A DNA stretch of 64,000 bases from IMG/VR virus record IMGVR_UViG_3300012324_000010; one strand, written 5' to 3'. The translations under genes were made by a program, and so were the position numbers. The first letter of the stretch is position 1, and the number at the start of each line of letters is the position of its first letter. Below, piece by piece: positions 10,210 to 52,142 of this stretch. The notes beneath the pieces were generated by a model. It ran no database searches. It was given only the letters and a program-made list of their open reading frames with translations, and was not told the origin of the DNA. The DNA comes from a virus (Duplodnaviria > Heunggongvirae > Uroviricota > Caudoviricetes).

Positions 10210-11640
10210 ATTTCACCAAAACCACAAGTCAGAGAAGCCCCGGAATCTTTAGCTCCGGGGAGTGAATGGCTTAAAACTTTCACCCCTCTGGTCCACTTTT
10301 GACAAAGAGGTGAAGAGTATGATATACTTATCCATATCGCCCACAAGACAAAGAAGGGAGGGTTGAAGACATGGAGATAACCTTAACTAGGAAGATTTTA
10401 ATTGAGCCTAGTGAGGAGCAGGAGATACTGCTCAAGAGTACAGCTCAAGCATATACAGATGCCTGTAACTACATCTCAGCGTTCTGTTTCAGAGAGCATA
10501 CAACTTCAAAGAAGAATATTCAGGAATCTTTGTATTATGATCTCAGAGAGCACTTTAACCTCCCTAGTCAGATGGCGATTTCTGCGATTCGTTCAGTGGT
10601 ATCCGCATATGCTACTGTTCACGCAACACAGAAAAGGTGGTCTGTACAACCTGCTTTTAAGAAGCAAAAGTACAATCTTACCTGGAACAGAGACTATTCT
10701 CTCAACAGAAAAACTGGTGATTTTAGCCTCAATACCCTAGATGGTAGGCAGCACATTAAAACCCAGTGGAAGGGACAAGAAAAGTATTCTAGCTTGGAGA
10801 AATACGGCACAGCCACCATTGCTTTTAAGCATGGAAAATGGTTTGCACATATACCCGTATCTATCACTGTGGACGAGTTGAGTCTTGATGATGTGGTAGA
10901 TATTATGGGAATTGACTTGGGTGTAAACTTTCTGGCGACTGCTTACAGCTCCACCACAGGAAAAACACAGTTCTTCAGTGGAAAGCACATCAAGCACAAG
11001 CGAGCACAGTATAATAATCTGCGTTCTGAGCTGCAAAGAAAAGGTACCCGATCTTCAAGAAAACGACTTAAGGCTATTGGTAATCGAGAAAACCGTTGGA
11101 TGAGTGATATCAATCACACCATCACTAAGGCACTCGTGAATACTACCAATCCCACCTTGTTTGTTTTGGAAGATTTAAGCGGTATCCGCTCAGCTACAGA
11201 AAAGGTTCGCACAAAAGATCGCTATGTGCAAGTATCATGGGCATTTTATGATTTCAGAAAGAAGCTAGAATATAAAGCTCAGCTACATGGGCATAAGGTT
11301 CTTATTGTAGATCCTCGGTACACTTCTCAAATGTGTCCTAAATGCGGTTATACACATAAGAAAAACCGCAATAAGAAAACACACACTTTCTGCTGCACAA
11401 AGTGTGGTTATTGTTCCAACGATGATAGAATAGCAGCAATGAATCTGTGTGCAAAGGGAATTCAGTACCGTGCACAGTTCGCTATGAGCAAAGCTCCTAG
11501 CGAAGGGGAAAGTCATCATCCCCACGATGTTCCGACAGCATCTTAGTATGTTAAAAAGGCAGGAGAGATAATCATTCTCGATTACTGCTGGTCAGGGACA
11601 AGCCCTGGAGTCTTTAGCTCTGGGGTAGATGACCCCTTGT
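10210..11640 (+). mobile_element. IS200/IS605-family insertion sequence carrying only tnpB (IS1341-like); boundaries approximate
   Basis: Left-end hairpin ccccggAATCTTTAGCTccgggg at 10238-10260 and near-identical right-end hairpin ccctggAGTCTTTAGCTctgggg at 11603-11625 flank a single TnpB ORF. No tnpA present. Confidence 0.8.
10371..11546 (+). CDS. tnpB: RNA-guided endonuclease TnpB (IS605 OrfB family transposase-associated protein)
   Basis: 391 aa; RuvC-I motif GIDLGVNF, RuvC-II LFVLEDL region, C-terminal zinc finger CPKCGYTHKKNRNKKTHTFCCTKCGYCSNDDRIAAMNL; typical length and architecture. Confidence 0.9.
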   Translation: MEITLTRKILIEPSEEQEILLKSTAQAYTDACNYISAFCFREHTTSKKNIQESLYYDLREHFNLPSQMAISAIRSVVSAYATVHATQKRWSVQPAFKKQKYNLTWNRDYSLNRKTGDFSLNTLDGRQHIKTQWKGQEKYSSLEKYGTATIAFKHGKWFAHIPVSITVDELSLDDVVDIMGIDLGVNFLATAYSSTTGKTQFFSGKHIKHKRAQYNNLRSELQRKGTRSSRKRLKAIGNRENRWMSDINHTITKALVNTTNPTLFVLEDLSGIRSATEKVRTKDRYVQVSWAFYDFRKKLEYKAQLHGHKVLIVDPRYTSQMCPKCGYTHKKNRNKKTHTFCCTKCGYCSNDDRIAAMNLCAKGIQYRAQFAMSKAPSEGESHHPHDVPTAS

Positions 11641-19825: not shown

Positions 19826-20662
19826 TTACCAGCTAGATAGTAGAGAAGAGCCAGAGCTTAGACCAGGAACTGCAGGTTTAGGCAGTGTAGAAGGAATGTC
19901 TGGAAGAGGGGAAGGAGAAGGATCTGGTGCAGGTGAAGGCTGTGGAATATTATCCTGTCCAGAAACCTCTACACCCCATTGTGCAAAATCTTCAGATACT
20001 TCATCACCAAAATTAAGATCATCATTGTCAACATATCCACCAGAAAGAGAAGCAATGATATGTGCTACACCATTGTCATCTACAGAATAAATAGGAGATC
20101 CTGAATCACCACCAATAGCAAAAACACTAGCTTCTACACTTCCACGCTGGTAATCAATCTTAGTGACTTTACCACATGTCTTTTGAGTGCTCCTGCCATA
20201 TTTACATACAGCGTCTCCTTTACGCACATCACCAAGGGGTTGTGCATTTCCAACAGGAGTATTTCCATTAATAACACCAGAAGTTGTCACTCCTGGTGTT
20301 AGTTTGAAGATAGCCATATCACTAAATACCTTACCATCAGGATTGTGATGATAAGAGTTAGGACCATAGTAGTTTTTCATAAAAGTATCATCAGAAATGG
20401 GAACATTGCGAGAAGAAATCTTCTTCACAGTAGATCCATCATCACGCTTGCGCACACAATGTGCTGCTGTTACACCATAAAGATCTCCCTTTTTATCTTT
20501 TACCACTGAAGTAAGGGTGCATAGTGACACCCTGTTGTTAGAAAACTGGATTTCAATTTGATCTCCAGGATTTACTGAAGCAGGTGCAGCATGTGCCGCA
20601 ACAGGAGATAAGATAGCAACAGATGCAGCAAAAACAGCCGCTGCAAACTTAATCTTAAACAT
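19826..20662 (-). CDS. secreted S1-family (trypsin-like) serine protease with Pro-rich C-terminus
   Basis: Start trimmed to MFKIKFAAAV (SD GAAAGG). Signal peptide, catalytic His motif VTAAHC and Ser motif GGDSGSP; C-terminal PSPAPDPSPSPLP tail. Confidence 0.8.
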   Translation of the reverse strand: MFKIKFAAAVFAASVAILSPVAAHAAPASVNPGDQIEIQFSNNRVSLCTLTSVVKDKKGDLYGVTAAHCVRKRDDGSTVKKISSRNVPISDDTFMKNYYGPNSYHHNPDGKVFSDMAIFKLTPGVTTSGVINGNTPVGNAQPLGDVRKGDAVCKYGRSTQKTCGKVTKIDYQRGSVEASVFAIGGDSGSPIYSVDDNGVAHIIASLSGGYVDNDDLNFGDEVSEDFAQWGVEVSGQDNIPQPSPAPDPSPSPLPDIPSTLPKPAVPGLSSGSSLLSSW

Positions 20663-20793
20663 AGATAATGTGCCTTTCCAGATAGGTTTTTGATAGTTTG
20701 TATAGTAATAGATACTACTGTACAAGCAGAAGAGTACTACGCTGTGAAAAATCTGTCAAGAATATAGAAAAGAAATATGCATTATTTATATAG

Positions 20794-34440: not shown

Positions 34441-35724
34441 TTAAAAGAATACCTTTTTTACTTTATCTAGGAAAGATACACTAACTTCTCCACCTGTATT
34501 AACCTTAGGTCCTACATTGGTAGAAATATTTTTCTTCTTTACAGGTGTAGAGTCATTTTTGTCCCTTGATACCCTTTCTTTGTTGGAAGTATCATTGTCT
34601 TCTTTATCTTCAGTATCATCTACTGATACTGATATATCATCTTGTGAAACTTCTCCCTCAGCTGGTTGTGGGGGTTGTATGGTATAGCCATCATCACTAG
34701 GCTCGCTGGTAGAGGTTGTGGATTGGTCAGAATCTGTGCTGCTATCTTCTGAGGAAGAAGGAAATTGAGATGAGCTACTGGGTGTAGAACTTTCTGTGTG
34801 AGAAGATGCTGTAGAAGGAGATTTATCATCTACATCCTTGTCACCATCTACATCTTTATTCCCGTTAGTTTCCTCTGGTGAAGTTGTAGAAGGTTGTGGT
34901 TCATTCTCAGAAGGATTGGGTTCATCTTCTCCTGTACTATCATCTCCTGTATTATCAACAAACACTTCCTGTCCTACTGTTTTTTCAATCCAGTCTTTGT
35001 ACCCAGAAACAGGCATGTACATAGTTCTTTTGTTTCCTACTGGATCTATTCCTTGTGGGGTTGCTCCAAAAGCAAGAACACCATAAAGTGTATCATTGAT
35101 CACAAATGGTCCTCCAGAGTCTCCCACTGTGGAGATACCATCTTTGAAGATAACAGGATTGATAGTCATTCCTGGGTTAAACTCGTCATCTTTTTCTGTC
35201 TTATGAAACATTGTTCCATCTAGAGTATTAAGATTTTCTAGTTTCTTCTTTTCACCTGGACCCCAACCATATCCTTTTCCTGGGGTATCTTTACTAATAG
35301 TACCATTGTAAAGTTTCATAGGAGTAGCATTGTCTACAGGTTTATTAAGACGAAACAACGCCATATCTCTATCTGAGGAGTAAGTCTTTACATCATCTAC
35401 TGTATAAACAGGCTGTGATTTAGCACTGGTTCCAAAAGAAATATTTGAATACCATTTATCCATTCCATCTTTAGGAATGCAGTGTTGTGCTGTCAACACC
35501 CATTGTGGAGAAATCAAAGTGCCAGTACAAGTCAAGGTATGAACTGTAGGGTTTACATTATCAATATCCTCTTTATTTTTCATAAAAATTCTTGCTACTG
35601 CACTGGTGGTGTCATTGTCAGGTGCATCTGTGGTAGAAACCATTGCTGATGCTGGTACTGCACAAGATGCAAGTGCAATAGCAGCTGTAGCAGAAGATGT
35701 ATATATTTTGCGTTTTAAAGACAT
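34441..35724 (-). CDS. secreted S1-family serine protease with S/T/D-rich linker and conserved C-terminal tail
   Basis: Signal peptide; CTGTLISPQWVLTAQHC (His), GDSGGPF (Ser); C-terminal VGPKVNTGGEVSVSFLDKVKKVFF. Confidence 0.85.
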   Translation of the reverse strand: MSLKRKIYTSSATAAIALASCAVPASAMVSTTDAPDNDTTSAVARIFMKNKEDIDNVNPTVHTLTCTGTLISPQWVLTAQHCIPKDGMDKWYSNISFGTSAKSQPVYTVDDVKTYSSDRDMALFRLNKPVDNATPMKLYNGTISKDTPGKGYGWGPGEKKKLENLNTLDGTMFHKTEKDDEFNPGMTINPVIFKDGISTVGDSGGPFVINDTLYGVLAFGATPQGIDPVGNKRTMYMPVSGYKDWIEKTVGQEVFVDNTGDDSTGEDEPNPSENEPQPSTTSPEETNGNKDVDGDKDVDDKSPSTASSHTESSTPSSSSQFPSSSEDSSTDSDQSTTSTSEPSDDGYTIQPPQPAEGEVSQDDISVSVDDTEDKEDNDTSNKERVSRDKNDSTPVKKKNISTNVGPKVNTGGEVSVSFLDKVKKVFF

Positions 35725-35895
35725 AAAAGAGCATTCCTTTTTTAGACATCATTGTGTTGTTATGCATATTTTGCACATAGCATTGTATATCTATGATACA
35801 TTTTTTCTCCTTTTATTGTCACAGGAGAAAACAATACAAAAACACCTCCATTCCTTAGAATGAGAAATAGAGGTGTTATAAACTAAATTGCAATA

Positions 35896-37185
35896 TTAGA
35901 ACAGATTTTTTATCTTAGAGAAAAATGATTTCTGCTCTACATTTCCACCAGTTTTCACTGTTGGTCCTACAGCATCATCCTCTGACTCATTGTGAATATT
36001 ATCCTCTTCTAAGACAGGTGCTGCATTGTTATTGTCTTCTGCAACATTGCCCCCTAAGGTAGTGTTTTCTACTCCATTGCCACCTAGAGTAGCGTTTCCT
36101 ACTCCATTATTACCTACAGTAGTGTTTCCTGCAACAGTTGCATCACCAACAGGGATGGCTTCAGAAGAATCTTCCTCAGGTGGGTTTATTACTGTTGCTT
36201 CAGTAATACCGCCATCATCATTATTGTGTGTCCCTTCAGATGTGGAAGCTTTCTTGGAAGATGATGGTTTGGAAGATGATGGTTTGGTTGTATGTGATGT
36301 AGAAGGAGTGGAAGATTTGTCTCCATTGGAATCATCTTCTTCAGTGGGTACTTCTGCATCAACAGTTCCACCGTCTTCTTGTGGTTGGGTGTTTCCAGAG
36401 TCTGATCCTGGAGTAGAGACAAAGCTATCACTTTGTTTAATAGTATTTTCAATCCACTCTTTGTATTGTGCTACAGGCATATACAAACCATGAGACACTT
36501 CACCTTCATCAGGAATGGTTGCCATAGACAACACTCCATATACTGTGTCATCTATGATAAATGGAGATCCAGAATCACCCTTTGCAGAATGTCCTCCATT
36601 AAAGATTACCTCATTGGTATCCATTTCTTTGAACGGTCCACCGTGAATAGCTTCTGGTGACATTGTTCCATTAAGAGTGTTGAGAGCTTTTAGTCGTGGC
36701 TCGTCCATGGGCTTTCCCCATCCATAAGCTTGACCTTGTTTTTCTTCTTGCAAGACACTATCCCAAAGTTTCAATGGTTCAACATCATTGACTGGTTTTT
36801 CCAGGTGGAATAAAGCCATATCATCCTGATTAGAATGTGTTTTAACATCATCTATCTTATATGATTGTCCATCATCAGTAGTTCCAAAAGTGACACTTCC
36901 AGAATACTTGTCTAGTCCTCCATTAACACAGTGTGCAGCAGAAAGAATCCATTGTGGAGAAATCAAAGTTCCTGTACAAGATGTAACATGCACAATTCCA
37001 CTACCATTAGCTTGCACTGCATCTAGTTCAGCTTTATCACTTAGCTGAATATGTGCTATAGCATTAGTAGTATCATTAGCTTCTGCATTTGTATCACTCA
37101 CTAGAGCTTGTGCAGGAATGGCCATAGTTGTCAATGCTAGTGCTGCTGTTGCAGAAGCTGTAGCCATTTTTGTTTTACAACCCAT
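35896..37185 (-). CDS. secreted S1-family serine protease paralog with conserved C-terminal tail
   Basis: CTGTLISPQWILSAAHC, GDSGSPF; C-terminal VGPTVKTGGNVEQKSFFSKIKNLF. Confidence 0.85.
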   Translation of the reverse strand: MGCKTKMATASATAALALTTMAIPAQALVSDTNAEANDTTNAIAHIQLSDKAELDAVQANGSGIVHVTSCTGTLISPQWILSAAHCVNGGLDKYSGSVTFGTTDDGQSYKIDDVKTHSNQDDMALFHLEKPVNDVEPLKLWDSVLQEEKQGQAYGWGKPMDEPRLKALNTLNGTMSPEAIHGGPFKEMDTNEVIFNGGHSAKGDSGSPFIIDDTVYGVLSMATIPDEGEVSHGLYMPVAQYKEWIENTIKQSDSFVSTPGSDSGNTQPQEDGGTVDAEVPTEEDDSNGDKSSTPSTSHTTKPSSSKPSSSKKASTSEGTHNNDDGGITEATVINPPEEDSSEAIPVGDATVAGNTTVGNNGVGNATLGGNGVENTTLGGNVAEDNNNAAPVLEEDNIHNESEDDAVGPTVKTGGNVEQKSFFSKIKNLF

Positions 37186-37268
37186 GAAAAATCCTTCTTT
37201 CTTTTATTATCTATCCCTCTTATGAAAAATCATGAACTCATGATTGGTAACATGTCTATTGTAGATGT

Positions 37269-38651
37269 CTACCGTGTTGCATTGTCATGGCTGGATGCAT
37301 GAGCATGGTGGGTATCTACATCATGATCATGAGTAACATCTTTTCTTACAGTGCTTTTGTTTCCATAGGCACTATCTTGTGCAACTTTTTTGTGAGAAGA
37401 GTTTTTGATTGTCTTGAGACGTTTATGCAAACTATCAAATCTCTTGCCACTTTTCCTTTCTACTTTGGAGATTATCTTTTCAGCCAAAGATGCATCAGTT
37501 CCTGCTAGAGCATGTGACTGTGCTCCACCTTGTGCTGTTGCATGTGCTGTGTTTTTACCACCAATAGATGAAGCATGTGCTGAAGAGTGTGATTTGCGTC
37601 CCTTCTGTGCATGATGGGAAGGTTTCTTATTCCCCTTCTTTGCATGTGAAGAAGGTTTCTTCCCTGCTGCTTTAGACCTGTGGTGTCCAGATGCAGGCTG
37701 AGGAGAAGATACTAGTTTCTCACCTGTGGTCTCATTGATCCACTTGCCATAAGGAGAAACAAGAGCATAAAGCACAGTATCAGTAGCCTTTTGCCCATCA
37801 TCATGAATAACACCCTGAGACAAGATTCCATAAACTTTTCCATTGATAATAAATGGAGAGCCAGAATCACCATAGGTAGACTGTCCAGAGTTTAATGTAG
37901 CACGCTGAGTTTTCATACCTGGTACAGCACTGTCAGTTTCTACTTTGGGTTGAATCTGTGCAATATCAGCAGTGAGATTTTCTGCTTCTGCAGGCACACC
38001 TTGATCATCTACATCACCCCATCCATATACAGCACCAGGGGTAGGTGATTTTACTATTTTGGAAGCAATCTTCAAAGGTTGCGCTGCAGAAGGAGTACTA
38101 AGATGAAGCAAAGAAAGATCTACCTTGTCATTATTGACAACGCTATCCACTTCAATTTTATCTGTAGATTCTGGTGTTTCCCCCAAAGTCACTTCAGAAA
38201 ATGCTTCTTGTTTATCTACACAGTGTTTTGCTGTGAGAATCCACTCAGGAGCAATGAGAACACCTGTACAAATAGTGGAACCATATCCTTGACCTGAAGA
38301 GATATCATCAGAGTCAGAGGAATCATCAGAGGAATCATCAGTAGAATCTTCCTTATTGTCCTCATCTTTTATTTCATCAGAATCATCATTGTTGTTGTCT
38401 TCTGAAGATTTTTCATCTGAAGATGATCCATCCTCTTCATTAGCATAGTTTTCTGTTTCTTTGTCCCCAGAACCAGATTCCTTATTACTATCTTCTGGGA
38501 ATGTTGTTTCAACTCTAGCAATAGCACCAACATTTTCTTGATTTTTAGGCTGAGAGCCATCAACAATAGCAAAAGCAGGTGAAGCAACAACACTTGTTGT
38601 TACCACACCTGCACATAGCGCTGCTACATATCTAGACATGTGCTTAGTCAT
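37269..38651 (-). CDS. secreted S1-family serine protease paralog with acidic pro-region and His/basic-rich C-terminus
   Basis: CTGVLIAPEWILTAKHC, GDSGSPF; lacks the VNTGG tail. Confidence 0.8.
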   Translation of the reverse strand: MTKHMSRYVAALCAGVVTTSVVASPAFAIVDGSQPKNQENVGAIARVETTFPEDSNKESGSGDKETENYANEEDGSSSDEKSSEDNNNDDSDEIKDEDNKEDSTDDSSDDSSDSDDISSGQGYGSTICTGVLIAPEWILTAKHCVDKQEAFSEVTLGETPESTDKIEVDSVVNNDKVDLSLLHLSTPSAAQPLKIASKIVKSPTPGAVYGWGDVDDQGVPAEAENLTADIAQIQPKVETDSAVPGMKTQRATLNSGQSTYGDSGSPFIINGKVYGILSQGVIHDDGQKATDTVLYALVSPYGKWINETTGEKLVSSPQPASGHHRSKAAGKKPSSHAKKGNKKPSHHAQKGRKSHSSAHASSIGGKNTAHATAQGGAQSHALAGTDASLAEKIISKVERKSGKRFDSLHKRLKTIKNSSHKKVAQDSAYGNKSTVRKDVTHDHDVDTHHAHASSHDNATR

Positions 38652-47305: not shown

Positions 47306-47659
47306 TTATTGTGCTGCAGCAATGCACTCTTTTTCCAGTTGAGGAATCTCAAAAGAAATGCGCTCAATCTTTTCAGTAGAGCGGTATCCATCTCGCACTA
47401 GATAATCACACTCCCTTAAAGCTTTGTCTAGTTTTTGTCCCTCTGGAGTATCTTGTAAAGAAATATTTTTCTCTTTTAGATGCAAGCGCACCTGTTCTAC
47501 TTGTTGTTGCACTCTATCTCTAATCTTTTTGCTTTTCACGTGTGCTCTTTTCTGCTTCTTTTTCTCATTTCCAGCCAGAAACAAAAAAGTAACTAACCCA
47601 ACCAAGAGAATGATAGCAACTGCAACAATGCCAATAGTGACCCAAGTACTTATGCCCAT
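47306..47659 (-). CDS. membrane-anchored hypothetical protein
   Basis: Start trimmed to MGISTWV (SD AAAGGA); one TM then charged coiled region. Confidence 0.5.
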   Translation of the reverse strand: MGISTWVTIGIVAVAIILLVGLVTFLFLAGNEKKKQKRAHVKSKKIRDRVQQQVEQVRLHLKEKNISLQDTPEGQKLDKALRECDYLVRDGYRSTEKIERISFEIPQLEKECIAAAQ

Positions 47660-47824
47660 AGAAATATAATCCTTTTTTATTGAAAAACTTTTTTGTATAT
47701 TCCTTCCACTGTAGTTGTAAACAGTGACATAATCCAAATTTCAATGAAAGTCAAGGATGTAGGGTTGATTTTTTAAAATATACCAACTATCTTGTACAAA
47801 AACAAAAAATGTTACATGGGAAAA

Positions 47825-47839
47825 CCATGTCCCTTTTAG
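47825..47839 (+). repeat. polar intergenic motif CCATGTCCCTTTTAG (copy 10)
   Basis: same family. Confidence 0.7.
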
Positions 47840-48171
47840 TGATTGCAAAAATAAAAGCTCTATTTTCCATTTTAAGCCTTTGAAAACACTTGTATGGGTA
47901 TTTGTACAAATCTCTCCCCTGCAACGCTCTCACAGCCACGCAGGGTATCTATTTAGCTCATTTTGAATACAGCATCAGAAGACATCTTCTCTATATAGGA
48001 TCTTCTTCTCTTTGAGTTGAGTTGTTTCTCATCTCTTTGCACAAAAAAGCAAATCCATTTTAAGAAGATAAACTCTTTTCATGTAGGACCCTACCTAGAT
48101 CTTGTGCTCAACTTCTTAAAACGTCTCATAGAACAAAAACTTCTATCTTTCCCCTTGAAAAATCACAAAAT

Positions 48172-48193
48172 AATAACAGAATAATAACAGAAT
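48172..48193 (+). repeat. direct repeat AATAACAGAAT x2 (iteron-like)
   Basis: aataacagaataataacagaatag in a large non-coding region. Confidence 0.5.
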
Positions 48194-48318
48194 AGTATAC
48201 TTATTTTTCTCAGATTTTTCTTATGAAAATATGAACTTCAGTAAGGGGTAATGTTAAGGTTCCAAATTTTACCAATTTTCACCATATCAGCAGGTAGATT
48301 TATGTTTTTTGCAAAAAC

Positions 48319-48334
48319 TAGACAGAGCTGTCTA
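48319..48334. promoter_or_regulatory. perfect palindrome TAGACAG-AG-CTGTCTA (operator-like), copy 1
   Basis: 7-bp inverted arms with 2-bp spacer; related copies at 48710 and 51435. Confidence 0.5.
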
Positions 48335-48709
48335 TAAAGTTATACAAATGTTATCAAAATTAGTGTTTCTGTGAAATCCCTGTGAATCCTGATTTTTGAT
48401 AGATCTGTGCTTAAATCCAGAAACATTATCTGGAAGAGACATTTAAAGAATCATGGAAGTGAACATTCAAGACAACTAGCAAAGATTATCTAAAGCTTCA
48501 TGGAAATAATGTTTCAAGATCTTTACAAGTTTCAAGATAAGTTGTCTTATGTTCATCTGCAGAATCTTTTTTCAAAAGCTTCAGCAGATGTCTTAAACGG
48601 AATGCTAACGCATTCCTAGAGAAGATTACTTAGAGGTGAATCAAATTGCATAATTTTGTTTAATTTAACCCCCCTATAATTCCCCCCTAAACAATAGTCA
48701 CGTGGTAAG

Positions 48710-48725
48710 TAGACCGAGCTGTCTA
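48710..48725. promoter_or_regulatory. palindrome TAGACCGAGCTGTCTA, copy 2 (one arm mismatch)
   Basis: Same element as 48319 with A>C in the left arm. Confidence 0.45.
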
Positions 48726-48778
48726 TCAGAGATTTCACAGAATACAATATTTTCAAACTATCTCCTGGTAGAGGTATG

Positions 48779-48834
48779 TTTTTCCACCTGGGAAAACGTT
48801 TTATACACATTTTTATCCACAGGGTTGTGGATAA
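48779..48834. promoter_or_regulatory. cluster of DnaA-box-like sequences
   Basis: TTTTCCACC (48779), TTATCCACA (48813), and inverted TTGTGGATAA (48825), which is rc of TTATCCACAA. Lies in AT-rich non-coding DNA. Confidence 0.5.
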
Positions 48835-49195
48835 CTCTAAATAAGCTTTCTACCTGCTGTTATGCAAAAATGTGATCAAACTCATATAGAGGTGAAAATG
48901 ACTTATTTTTATACCTTGAGCTGCAAGTTAATCTTTTGTTAACCTAATGTTCATCTATTATTTTTATTCATAAGTGGTTTTTTGCGAAAAAATGACTCTG
49001 GGGACATGAAAATAGCACCTTTTCTAGTGGTTGAAAATAACGATTTTTGCGTGATCCACTTCACAAAAATGCCCTAAAAATTCAGCCAATTTCTCCATAT
49101 AAACGATTTTTTATAAGGTCTGCACTTTTGATGTAAAAAGTGCAAAAACTTAACATAATGGAGAAGTTTTCTTGGGTTTCTTTTCCTCAAGTATC

Positions 49196-49214
49196 ATTTT
49201 TGTGTCCCTTTTAC
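49196..49214 (+). repeat. polar intergenic motif TTTTTGTGTCCCTTTTACC (copy 11)
   Basis: same family. Confidence 0.8.
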
Positions 49215-49556
49215 CAATTGCTGTTAGTGGATAACACCTATCATTGGATATATCTTCCTACAGCAAAATCGCACCCAAAATCTATTGCTTTAAAAGTGAA
49301 TCTGAAACAGAAGATAAACACCCCTGAAAAACTAAAAAATATAGCTATACAAGGAAAGAAAAACGCATTGAAGTACAAATACTCACAAAAATACTTTCAA
49401 CCGCTTAGAAAGCAATATAGAGCTTTTTATCTCTTCTTCTTTTAAAGATCAAAAATGAGACTGATCTTCAAAAAAACCAGTCTCTTTTCCAACCTATTTG
49501 GTTGTATATTTCATGATAACCTGTGAGGAAAACACAGCTCTTGTTCCTGTGGTAGA

Positions 49557-50540
49557 TTACCACTGTCCATAGATTTCAGAATGTGCTTTAATATTCATAT
49601 TTCCAGCAATAATACCTCCATGGCAGATTGCATGATCTAGAACATGAACATTTTCGCATACCATGCTATCTCCTTGGATTGCACAGTTGCCATAAACATG
49701 TGAAGTGCCGCACACCTGGGAGTTATCTTTTACTACAGCATTGTCATAAACGTGAGATCTTCCATAGCACAATGCTTCACCTGATACTTCTGCATGTCCA
49801 TAGACAACACTGTTGTTATAGATTTTGGCGCTTCCCTTGATTACACAATGTCCATAGGCTTTAGCTTCATCTGATAGACAAGCATGATCAGAAACATGAC
49901 AATATCCTTTAAGTTGAACACTGTCTACAACAATAGAAGATCCATCAACTCGTGCATAGTCTGAAACTACAACATTTCCACAAACATGAGCATTGTCTCC
50001 TACTTGAGCATCATCTTTTACTTGTGCTTTTCCATAGACACAAGCTTTCCCACAAAGGTAAGCATAGCCATAAATATCAGCACTTCCACTGACTTTCACA
50101 CTGTCTTTGACAGTAGCCCTTTGATGCACTTGAGCATTGTCAAAGACTTGACTGTTATCTCTAATGATTGCACTGCTATAGACATGAGCATTGCCATATA
50201 CTTGTGCATTTCCTAGAACAGAAGATTTGCCTGAAACATGAGCTTTGTCATACACCTGCGCATTGTTTTTAATAGTTGCATAATCTTTTACTACTGCATT
50301 TCCATATACTTGTGCAGTGTCTTTTGCACAACTAGAACCAGAAAGAACAGCATTGTCATATACCTTGGCGTTATCAAAAACCCATGCATTATCAGAAAGG
50401 TTATGTGGTGATTCTACAAAACCTCCTTTGTCTCCCTGAGATACACCATGATCAGGAATATCTTTTAATGCTTGAATCCTGTGTAGAGTATGTCCTGAAA
50501 CAACAATGGTGTCATGGGTGAGTCTAAAATAGGTATCCAT
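49557..50540 (-). CDS. hexapeptide-repeat (left-handed beta-helix) protein
   Basis: 327 aa composed of about 45 consecutive hexads ([AS]x[VI]x[GDN]N-type, e.g. AQVYGNAVVKDYATIKNNAQVYDKAHV...). Confidence 0.65.
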   Translation of the reverse strand: MDTYFRLTHDTIVVSGHTLHRIQALKDIPDHGVSQGDKGGFVESPHNLSDNAWVFDNAKVYDNAVLSGSSCAKDTAQVYGNAVVKDYATIKNNAQVYDKAHVSGKSSVLGNAQVYGNAHVYSSAIIRDNSQVFDNAQVHQRATVKDSVKVSGSADIYGYAYLCGKACVYGKAQVKDDAQVGDNAHVCGNVVVSDYARVDGSSIVVDSVQLKGYCHVSDHACLSDEAKAYGHCVIKGSAKIYNNSVVYGHAEVSGEALCYGRSHVYDNAVVKDNSQVCGTSHVYGNCAIQGDSMVCENVHVLDHAICHGGIIAGNMNIKAHSEIYGQW

Positions 50541-50833
50541 AGTTGATAAGATCTCCTTTTAAAGATATGTAGTGCTTTTTAAAACCTAATGATAGGCTTG
50601 TGTAAACAAAAAGTCAATAGCATTTATCACATCATTAACATTTCAAGAGCACAGAAAAAAATCCCTGTGGAAAAAACTCCACAGGGAAAAGTTCTTTTTT
50701 TATTCTGTGCTAATAGCAGCTAGTTGCTCTGCTGTAGCAAGAACAGCAATGAGACCCCATGCTAAAGCTAGTGGCATCATAACAGCACTAATAGCAGCAA
50801 TAACAGTATTTTTCACCATGTGATATCACCTTT

Positions 50834-51271
50834 CTATACAAGATTAGGTTGTGCAGTCTTGTGGAAATCTAGTTCAATAGAGCGCACATCATAAGTAGAT
50901 GCAGCCTTGGATAGATTGATGATCATGAAGTTGTCATCATCACCTGCAAGATTATACACCTCATGCATGGAATCTAGAGCAAAAATATCGGCATCAGTCC
51001 AGTTACGTGCAGCAGCATTTCGGTGGTAGTTATCTTTACCCAAATCCAGCTTAGAATAATCAATCATAAAGACATCTTGCAAAATCAGTCCTGTTACAGA
51101 GTGTACTCCTCGCTTGTTGAGCATCATGGTGATGTCGTTGTCACCAAGTACATTTTCAATCAAAGAAACAGTGGAATCAAAAGTATTCTTGGTAGATGCT
51201 ACTACTCCAGTGACAACTCCAGCACCCTGGTAGTGGTTTTCTACAATAATAAACTTGGACATATATCTCAT
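50834..51271 (-). CDS. hypothetical protein
   Basis: 145-aa ORF. Confidence 0.5.
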   Translation of the reverse strand: MRYMSKFIIVENHYQGAGVVTGVVASTKNTFDSTVSLIENVLGDNDITMMLNKRGVHSVTGLILQDVFMIDYSKLDLGKDNYHRNAAARNWTDADIFALDSMHEVYNLAGDDDNFMIINLSKAASTYDVRSIELDFHKTAQPNLV

Positions 51272-51392
51272 CTCTTTCTGATAGATGGTGTGTTTTCCTC
51301 TTGAACAACTTCCATATTAGTGGGTGATTGAATGGTGATCAAGTTGTAGAAAAGTGGAATACCCCTGTATGGGTGTAGATAGAGAATATATG

Positions 51393-51412
51393 TTTTGTGT
51401 CCCCTTTTTACC
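51393..51412 (+). repeat. polar intergenic motif TTTTGTGTCCCCTTTTTACC (copy 12)
   Basis: same family. Confidence 0.8.
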
Positions 51413-51434
51413 AAATGAAGAGAACTATGAAAAA

Positions 51435-51452
51435 TAGACAGACTTGTCTGTA
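51435..51452. promoter_or_regulatory. palindrome TAGACAGACTTGTCTGTA, copy 3 variant
   Basis: ACAGAC..GTCTGT inverted repeat upstream of 50834..51271 (-). Confidence 0.4.
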
Positions 51453-51523
51453 TATTCCTACCTTGAAGATATAACTATAAAAGAAAAGACAGCACAAGGT
51501 GTTCTTGTACTGTCTTATTCCTG

Positions 51524-51597
51524 CGCTTCTGACGGGACTCGAACCCGCGACCCCTTGCGTGACAGGCAAGTGCGCTAACCGGCTGCGCCACAGAAGC
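51524..51597 (-). tRNA. tRNA-Asp (anticodon GTC)
   Basis: gcttctgtggcgcagccggttagcgcacttgcctgtcacgcaaggggtcgcgggttcgagtcccgtcagaagcg; anticodon loop CTGTCAC. Confidence 0.9.
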
Positions 51598-51731
51598 AAT
51601 AAATATACTATAACACACGTGAAAATATGGTGTCAAGTTCTAGCTTAAAAAACTTTTTATACACAAGAAATACTATGCTGATATGATAGAAAAGAACATT
51701 TATTCCTCTATTTTTTGCAAAGGAAAAGCAC

Positions 51732-52142
51732 ATGGCTAAAAAGAAAAAGACCACCTCTTCATCTACACCCTCTAGAACTGATATTGCAGCATCATTTATT
51801 GCTGACAACATCTACCGCTATAACACCATGACTGTTGAAGATAAATCTGTTAATCCTTGGGATCTCAAAGATGCACTGATTTTAAAAAATCCTGGAAACC
51901 TTTATGAAGTAAAAAACACCTCTGATGGTGATGTAATATCTATCAATGGCAATAACTGTGTTATCTATGCAGGTGATTCTGCTTTTAGTGATGCTGGACA
52001 GAGAGGTTTTAAACTAGACAGGATCATCTATGACCGCATGGGTGGATCTAGAGGGAAAGGATCTGGATCAGGGGGAAGTTTTGTCACTGTTGCACTTGTA
52101 CTTCTTCTTGTCATTATCATTGCAGTGGCTATTTTCTTCTAA
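51732..52142 (+). CDS. tail-anchored membrane protein
   Basis: 136 aa; basic N-terminus, Gly/Ser linker, C-terminal TM VTVALVLLLVIIIAVAIFF. Confidence 0.55.
   Translation: MAKKKKTTSSSTPSRTDIAASFIADNIYRYNTMTVEDKSVNPWDLKDALILKNPGNLYEVKNTSDGDVISINGNNCVIYAGDSAFSDAGQRGFKLDRIIYDRMGGSRGKGSGSGGSFVTVALVLLLVIIIAVAIFF

Follow-up and report, generated by a model that had tools for sequence, protein, structure and literature searches.

Three conserved, clustered palindromes as putative protein-binding sites beside DnaA boxes of a giant uncultivated element

Here we describe three 16-bp palindromes that share the core TAGAC-N6-GTCTA in a 64,000-nucleotide stretch of DNA (the window; IMG/VR record IMGVR_UViG_3300012324_000010), which is part, judging by its homologues, of a ~370-kb jumbo phage or giant plasmid-like element. 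The palindromes (sites 1, 2 and 3) are real, non-random, clustered and conserved, they vary in the manner of a protein site, and they adjoin functional-looking DnaA boxes. We consider it somewhat probable that they are recognition sites of one two-fold symmetric (dimeric), sequence-specific binder whose action is local, at a conserved control region with DnaA boxes. In giant uncultivated replicons of such size almost all genes are of unknown function, and replication and regulation are uncharacterised. A conserved, putative protein-binding palindrome beside functional-looking DnaA boxes offers a concrete cis-element on a giant uncultivated replicon, which could serve in DNA-affinity capture of the binder, in mapping the origin and in the construction of a minimal replicon.

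Three palindromes with a common core lie within 3.13 kb

The original prediction had reported a perfect 7-2-7 inverted repeat, an arm variant and a third, related palindrome, and all three are present at the positions given for them (Table 1). All of them are intergenic. Site 3 had been read as ACAGAC-TT-GTCTGT; this register exists in the window, but the relatives carry TAGACAGACCTGTCTG, from which the window copy differs by a single C>T, and site 3 is therefore in the same register as sites 1 and 2. An A-run was said to precede each palindrome. Site 1 (A5, 48313-48317) and site 3 (A5, 51430-51434) do have one, and site 2 (GTGGTAAG) does not. The local genes have the minus strand as their sense strand, and on it the A-runs of sites 1 and 3 read as a T-rich 3' flank: site 1 is followed by GTTTTTGC, and site 3, there CAGACAAGTCTGTCTA, by a T5 run.

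The frequency of the pattern exceeds chance. With up to one mismatch to TAGACAGNNCTGTCTA the 64 kb contained 2 matches versus 0.01 expected, and with up to two mismatches 3 matches versus 0.28 expected, a count that none of 100 shuffles reached; at up to three mismatches (5 versus 3.65 expected) the signal was at chance level. All three occurrences of the reduced core AGAC-N6-GTCT in the window are at sites 1-3, and no fourth copy was found there with either the reduced core or up to two mismatches. The sites are spread over 3.13 kb of the 64 kb (p ~ 0.007 for three random points that close). Searching IMG/VR with the exact 16-mer gave six single, unrelated matches, which is chance level. A weak match, TAGACAGGATCATCTA (52015-52030), has one perfect and one poor half-site and lies within an open reading frame (ORF) of 136 amino acids (51732-52142); it is shared with two relatives (L017 and L024), probably because it is coding.

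Conservation of the sequence rather than of a stem

The sites were compared among 24 related loci (L007-L030), whose copies of the 142-amino-acid protein encoded downstream of site 3 are 65-95% identical to that of the window. Sites 1 and 2 occur in every relative contig covering them, with a spacing of 391-392 bp in all lineages, and site 3 was found in every lineage. Site 1 is unchanged in 9 of 9 aligned relatives. In site 2, the outer TAGAC and GTCTA are invariant and the inner positions 6, 10 and 11 vary, and the ~30-40 nt on each side are invariant or nearly so. In an 11-sequence alignment, site 3 forms the largest invariant block (15 columns) of an intergenic region with 65% mean identity and is better conserved than the promoter hexamers downstream; in these 11 sequences and five further contigs, CAGAC and TCTGTCTAT are fixed and three central bases are variable. 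No such palindrome was found in L001-L006, which hold distant homologues of a beta-solenoid protein encoded in the window. Judged by these patterns of conservation, sites 1-3 are under selection as functional cis-elements.

Among the 12 distinct variants of the three sites, AGAC/GTCT never varies, inner pairs change on one side only, and there are no compensatory changes. The fraction of paired positions (81.3%) lies below all 500 shuffles (mean 84.0%). Folded as RNA, the sites reach -4 to -6 kcal/mol (z -0.4 to -2.0), compared with -18.4 and -21.7 kcal/mol (z -6.8) for two neighbouring real terminators. They do not show the combination of a stable G+C-rich stem and a U-tract that marks an intrinsic terminator, and a terminator scan calls the neighbours and not the sites. 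One-sided variation, the lack of compensation and weak hairpins argue that the selected feature is the sequence TAGAC-N6-GTCTA rather than a stem, and one-sided central variation is expected of a protein site, not of a hairpin. The dimer-type architecture with dyad symmetry proposed in the original prediction agrees with the conserved outer half-sites and this one-sided variation; its statement that the sites are not the Gram-positive LexA box is also correct, as they do not fit CGAAC-N4-GTTCG.

We give little credence to the idea that the palindromes act as hairpins in RNA or single-stranded DNA, be it as weak minus-strand terminators or attenuators, RNA processing sites, or hairpin promoters or origins. 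T-rich tracts do follow sites 1 and 3 on the minus strand, a 4-nt loop can hold all variation of site 3, and in L012 and L013 the stem of this site is lengthened to 14 bp (-12 kcal/mol), where one change between the two looks compensatory. However, L017 breaks the extended stem, site 2 lacks a T-tract, and the folding energies have z values like those of shuffled sequences, far from the -18 to -22 kcal/mol of the nearby terminators; the 12 variants also lack compensation and pair less than their shuffled controls. Moreover, a strong terminator lies 35 nt before site 3, so that a second one would be redundant. A structured RNA was rejected as well, with no Rfam match, no covariation by RNAalifold and no compensatory changes.

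In sites 1 and 2 the central 2 bp (CT on the minus strand) never vary. Together with the TnpB/IS605 genes in the window, which are inserted at various points of the locus in relatives, and a weak resolvase-like fragment inserted nearby in L013, this could suggest that a mobile or recombining element has its ends or crossover sites here, be they subterminal hairpins of IS200/IS605, ends of miniature inverted-repeat transposable elements or serine-recombinase sites with a 2-bp core. Such an origin is extremely unlikely: neither the window nor the relatives' loci have a similar palindrome at or near a TnpB copy, the 391-392 bp segment has the same orientation in every relative without empty or inverted alleles, and its position is fixed across lineages with 65-95% protein identity.

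Sites 1 and 2 lie in a conserved ORF-free region with DnaA boxes

Sites 1 and 2 are contained in a conserved core within an ORF-free stretch of 1.8 kb in total (49556..47738, minus strand). The core is 83.8% identical to that of L014, the most distant relative, as against an identity of 69-76% in the genes on its flanks and 67% in the flanking non-coding DNA. Rfam searches at gathering and E-value thresholds returned tRNAs only, with no match in the core, and RNAalifold gave a covariation term of +3.17 and thus no support for covariation; the core is therefore a candidate origin or control region. It includes three DnaA boxes (consensus TTATNCACA) within 34 bp. Across lineages, at least four of five substitution events in the boxes fall at the degenerate N of the consensus (p ~ 7e-4), with the variants C/T, G/T and T/A/C. 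Variation almost only at this base indicates that the boxes are read by DnaA and makes the region a candidate origin or maintenance region.

Other features of this region are conserved as well. C6-TATAAT-T-C6, seen from the minus strand as direct repeats of G6, does not change in any of the relatives and places a perfect -10 hexamer, without a recognisable -35, between C runs; a conserved 27-mer at this position, used as a probe, recovered five related metagenome contigs. An inverted repeat of 55 nt (78% complementary, 1465 nt between the arms) brackets the ORF-free region, and both arms are kept in divergent relatives with differing mismatches. The core further contains several more palindromes, many short direct and inverted repeats, and a conserved AT-rich block (48880-48994) in which no DnaA-trio pattern was found. 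The ORF-free region has no additional TAGAC.G or C.GTCTA half-sites, i.e. no iterons, and no second copy in the window. IS605/TnpB elements are inserted at the edges of this region in some relatives; in L010, for instance, a 1.69-kb insertion occupies the equivalent of ~48090. Taken together, these features give the region the look of a candidate origin or maintenance control region.

These surroundings bear on the operator function given to the sites in the original prediction. Sites 1 and 2 lie inside the ORF-free region and not near a downstream gene; no gene start is nearby, and the surrounding promoter-like hexamers are either weak or not maintained in L014. By inspection, a plus-strand TTGCAA-18-TATAAA would put site 1 in a promoter spacer, in favour of an operator, but this putative promoter is not conserved in L014 and is followed by no ORF.

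Site 3 lies between a tRNA terminator and a conserved promoter

On the minus strand, the order is tRNA-Asp, terminator, site 3, TAAAAAGGGGACACAAAA, promoter, 142-amino-acid protein gene, 39-amino-acid peptide gene, terminator, beta-solenoid gene, terminator, the 1.8-kb ORF-free stretch and a membrane-protein gene. The gap between the tRNA-Asp terminator and site 3 is 35 nt. The hexamers and 17-nt spacing of the promoter are kept in 11 of 11 sequences while the spacer sequence diverges; the -10 is TAATAT or TATAGT across lineages, and the -35 is TAGACA in most lineages and TTGATC in the window. From the centre of site 3 to the inferred transcription start site downstream there are 112-135 nt, a distance that varies by lineage and is therefore not the geometry of a repressor; the distance from site 3 to the GGGACA motif (26-32 nt) is steadier. 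In L022, an insertion sequence (IS) replaces tRNA-Asp, and site 3 is still kept.

The -35 of most lineages (equivalents in L012-L030) reads TAGACA(G/A)G, the same hexamer as the palindrome half-site. Palindrome arms serving as back-to-back -35 hexamers (TAGACA) of divergent promoters were rejected, as no -10 was found 16-18 nt downstream on either strand of any site. The tRNA-Asp promoter (51607-51665, minus strand) is a canonical TTGACA-18-TATAGT with an A/T-rich upstream element, a DnaA-box-like TTATACACA lies just upstream of it, and the promoter module is tandemly duplicated in L030 (1-120).

In the original prediction, the palindromes were operators of a helix-turn-helix (HTH) repressor with a dispersed regulon, and site 3 repressed the promoter of 50834..51271. 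The sites are indeed dyad-symmetric and conserved. However, no copies were found in the 64-kb window beyond a single 3.1-kb stretch, the conserved promoter lies well downstream of site 3 at a lineage-variable distance, as given above, and no HTH regulator was detected by Pfam in ~55 ORFs of the window and 10 ORFs of relatives, several of which are absent from the window. We therefore regard the repressor-regulon interpretation as partly supported and, as a whole, unlikely.

Another class of regulator is suggested by the core of sites 1 and 3. The ComR-box of PcomX in Streptococcus thermophilus is TAGTGACATATATGTCTCTA, with a GACA-N4-TGTC core (PMC5131891). The orientation of ComR-boxes is set by a T-rich stretch at the 3' end (PMC11564875); this T-track is followed by a -10 at a fixed ~23 nt after TGTC, with no -35 (PMC4072589, PMC6703854), and the comX ComR-box of some streptococci has a distal arm that belongs to the upstream tRNA terminator (PMC4072589). 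Site 1 (GACA-GAGC-TGTC) and site 3 (GACA-GACT-TGTC) have this core spacing and a T-rich 3' stretch on the minus strand, site 3 follows a tRNA terminator at 35 nt, a position reminiscent of comX promoters, and a gene for a 39-amino-acid hydrophobic peptide lies downstream. This gene is called in most relatives covering the position, and its DNA is 90% identical to that of L014. The palindromes might thus be boxes of a peptide-sensing activator of the Rgg/ComR type (RRNPP), encoded by host or element and driving minus-strand transcription, which would link the behaviour of the element to quorum sensing of its host. We think this decidedly unlikely, because by inspection no TAnnnT -10 lies ~23 nt past TGTC at the three sites of the window or relatives, the centre is GC-rich instead of AT-rich, and no Rgg/ComR-like gene is present in the window. 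In addition, GACA-N4-TGTC is complete in site 1 and, for site 3, in the copy of the window; one GACA half has C as its fourth base in site 2 and A, C or T at this position in site 3 (giving GACC or GACT in site 2 and in site 3 of other lineages), although this base pair is reported to be essential (PMC5131891).

Table 1. Palindromes and neighbouring features in the window
Feature	Position	Strand	Sequence	Remarks
Site 1	48319..48334		TAGACAGAGCTGTCTA	Perfect 7-2-7 palindrome
Site 2	48710..48725		TAGACCGAGCTGTCTA	One mismatch in arm
Site 3	51435..51450		TAGACAGACTTGTCTG	
Conserved ORF-free core (~0.95 kb)	48052..48994	-		Contains sites 1 and 2; no ORF >64 amino acids
Three DnaA boxes	48801..48834		TTATACACA (48801, +), TTATCCACA (48813, +), TTATCCACA (48826, -)	Consensus TTATNCACA
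C6-TATAAT-T-C6	48669..48687	+		Invariant in all relatives
Inverted repeat, right-hand arm	47853..47907			55 nt
Inverted repeat, left-hand arm	49373..49427			55 nt
tRNA-Asp	51523-51597	-		
Strong intrinsic terminator of tRNA-Asp	51486..51516	-		-18.4 kcal/mol, z -6.8; immediately upstream of site 3
Copy of TAAAAAGGGGACACAAAA motif	51394..51411	-		26-32 nt downstream of site 3 in all lineages
Sigma-A-type promoter of the 142-amino-acid protein gene	51314..51342	-		-35 TTGATC (51342..51337), 17-nt spacer, -10 TAATAT (51319..51314)
142-amino-acid protein gene	50834..51262	-		Function unassigned; no Pfam or PHROG match; downstream of site 3
39-amino-acid hydrophobic peptide gene	50701-50820	-	MVKNTVIAAISAVMMPLALAWGLIAVLATAEQLAAISTE	Directly after the 142-amino-acid protein gene
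Beta-solenoid gene	50540..49557	-		
Membrane-protein gene	47737..47306	-		
TnpB/IS605-family gene	10371-11546			

A putative dimeric protein that would act locally

In the reading that we favour, each monomer of the protein would read one outer half-site TAGAC. With 11 bp between their centres, the two half-sites would face the same side of the helix, and the central 6 bp would be contacted weakly or not at all. Sites 1 and 2, 391 bp apart, are embedded in the ORF-free DnaA-box region, a candidate replication or maintenance origin, and site 3, 2.7 kb off, has the tRNA-Asp terminator on one side and the regulatory region of the 142-amino-acid protein gene on the other. Most likely the protein would mark or bridge the sites and so control replication, partition or local transcription, rather than repress a dispersed regulon. 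We infer the binding of a dimer, what kind of protein the binder is and the effect of its binding.

A more specific version, which we put forward tentatively, is that the core (48052-48994) is the origin of the ~370-kb element and recruits host DnaA, that the palindromes bind an element-specific protein from a family so far outside Pfam, be it an initiator, ParB-like or for copy control, and that site 3 serves as a pairing (handcuffing) partner. A related sub-case, which we regard as doubtful, takes the palindromes for centromere-like sites of the parS/sopC type or for initiator sites, with a binder of the ParB, SopB or Rep kind whose gene would lie in another part of the element. The sopC site of F is a 7-2-7 16-mer (TGGGACCACGGTCCCA), and chromosomal parS (TGTTNCACGTGAAACA) has 16 bp and no spacer. 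The format of the palindromes matches the SopB site and their length that of parS, the few copies are clustered around the DnaA-box region, and a large low-copy replicon needs partition. Nevertheless, no ParA, ParB or Rep gene was found in the 64-kb window or the flanks of relatives, there is no similarity to parS, the inner bases are poorly conserved whereas parS is usually conserved throughout, and the region is itself only a candidate origin.

Several observations weigh against a local dimeric binder. The Pfam scan detected no HTH, ribbon-helix-helix, ParB or Rep domain in the ~65 ORFs, and none of the small ORFs in intergenic gaps is Cro-type-like. The analysis covered ~17% of the element, and the sites may therefore look local only because of this coverage. 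Recognition may be asymmetric, given the stronger conservation of the right half, TCTGTCTAT, compared with the left. At site 3, an alternative 5-bp stem, ACAGA-N4-TCTGT, leaves all variation in its loop, and a small hairpin may therefore form there. As for the surrounding region, its role as an origin is that of a candidate: no initiator gene adjoins the ORF-free region, cumulative GC skew only changes slope near 50 kb without a clear minimum, and the strand-polar motif AAGGGACA keeps its strand across the region without a flip.

The 8-mer AAGGGACA (extended consensus ~cTAAAAGGGACAcAAAA) is itself over-represented, with 20 copies in the window versus 2.3 expected. Nineteen are on the minus strand (5304, 8290, 11685, 14443, 17414, 19147, 20801, 27588, 30838, 31068, 34560, 36229, 47828, 49203, 52339, 57510, 59195, 60002 and 61210), 12 of them intergenic, and the sole plus-strand copy is at 10770. 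Five further copies of the form AGGGGACA are all on the minus strand. The orientation is unchanged at 1-16 kb despite plus-strand genes, and there the motif lies just 3' of plus-strand terminators.

The element and its relatives

Metagenomic contigs of 337-382 kb, recurrent across many samples, encode homologues of the 142-amino-acid protein, and the window is assigned to a ~370-kb element on this basis. Related contigs that are complete include ENA ERZ27316819 k141_81752 (363,210 bp) and ERZ26881949 NODE_1 (382,212 bp). The window has a GC content of 38.1%, eight scattered tRNA genes and mostly ORFan proteins. Recognisable domains are those of an RIIA-like ATPase, an SNF2 helicase, TnpB, three trypsin-like paralogues, a Rib-domain protein and Ltp lipoproteins, together with AT3-SGNH acyltransferase, SPFH, MscS and NT5C. 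The three trypsin-like serine protease paralogues (427, 429 and 460 amino acids) are adjacent (34441-38651), a weaker fourth lies at 19826-20725, and they are unusual cargo for a phage or plasmid. TnpB/IS605-family elements lie at differing points of the locus by lineage (L010, 9175-10866; L012, 7759-9279; L022, 5415-6638; L014, 1626-3301).

Neither megablast nor blastn found a match among GenBank phages or PLSDB plasmids, IMG/VR and the GTDB representative genomes lack the conserved 27-mer, and a protein-pattern scan of GTDB genomes returned nothing. Protein searches with the Ltp and acyltransferase genes identified no host. The element resembles the oral elements termed Inocles in size, IS content and tRNAs; however, the reported GC content of Inocles is ~32% in three groups and 24% in a fourth, and the Inocle marker gene InoC is not in the window, and identity with Inocles is therefore not established.

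Comparison with known systems

In the window, sites 1 and 3 share the spacing of the GACA-N4-TGTC core and the orienting 3' T-track with the pseudo-palindromic streptococcal ComR-box, and one copy lies just past a tRNA terminator; unlike the ComR-box, the palindromes have no -10 at a fixed distance, a GC-rich centre, a degenerate GACA half in sites 2 and 3, and no cognate regulator in sight.

With the centromeres bound by ParB and SopB they have in common a 16-bp inverted repeat (7-2-7 in site 1) present in a few copies near a putative origin of a large replicon, but the sequences are not similar, conservation is lacking at the inner positions and no parAB was found in the 64 kb.

The origins of P1 (oriR) and pSC101 are similar to the region around sites 1 and 2 in their clustered consensus DnaA boxes by AT-rich DNA with further dyad and direct repeats. 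P1 incA consists of extra sites at kb distance from the origin, and the extra site at kb distance seen here is comparable. Unlike these origins, the region has no adjacent rep gene, no tandem iterons sharing the TAGAC half-site and no DnaA-trio.

Operators of the phage 434 type, ACAA-N6-TTGT, have conserved outer half-sites around a variable 6-bp centre, and OL and OR of lambda are ~2.4 kb apart. Like the operators of the 434 and lambda repressors and Cro, the sites described here have dyad symmetry, conserved outer half-sites of 4-5 bp whose centres are separated by roughly one turn of the helix, a variable 6-bp centre and several copies within a few kb. In contrast to those operators, they do not form tandem sets over the -35 and -10 of divergent promoters (no conserved promoter overlaps site 1, 2 or 3), no cI/cro-like gene is adjacent, and two of the sites lie in an ORF-free DnaA-box region. 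In kind, the sites would belong to a familiar class of element, dyad protein sites, found here on an uncharacterised giant replicon.

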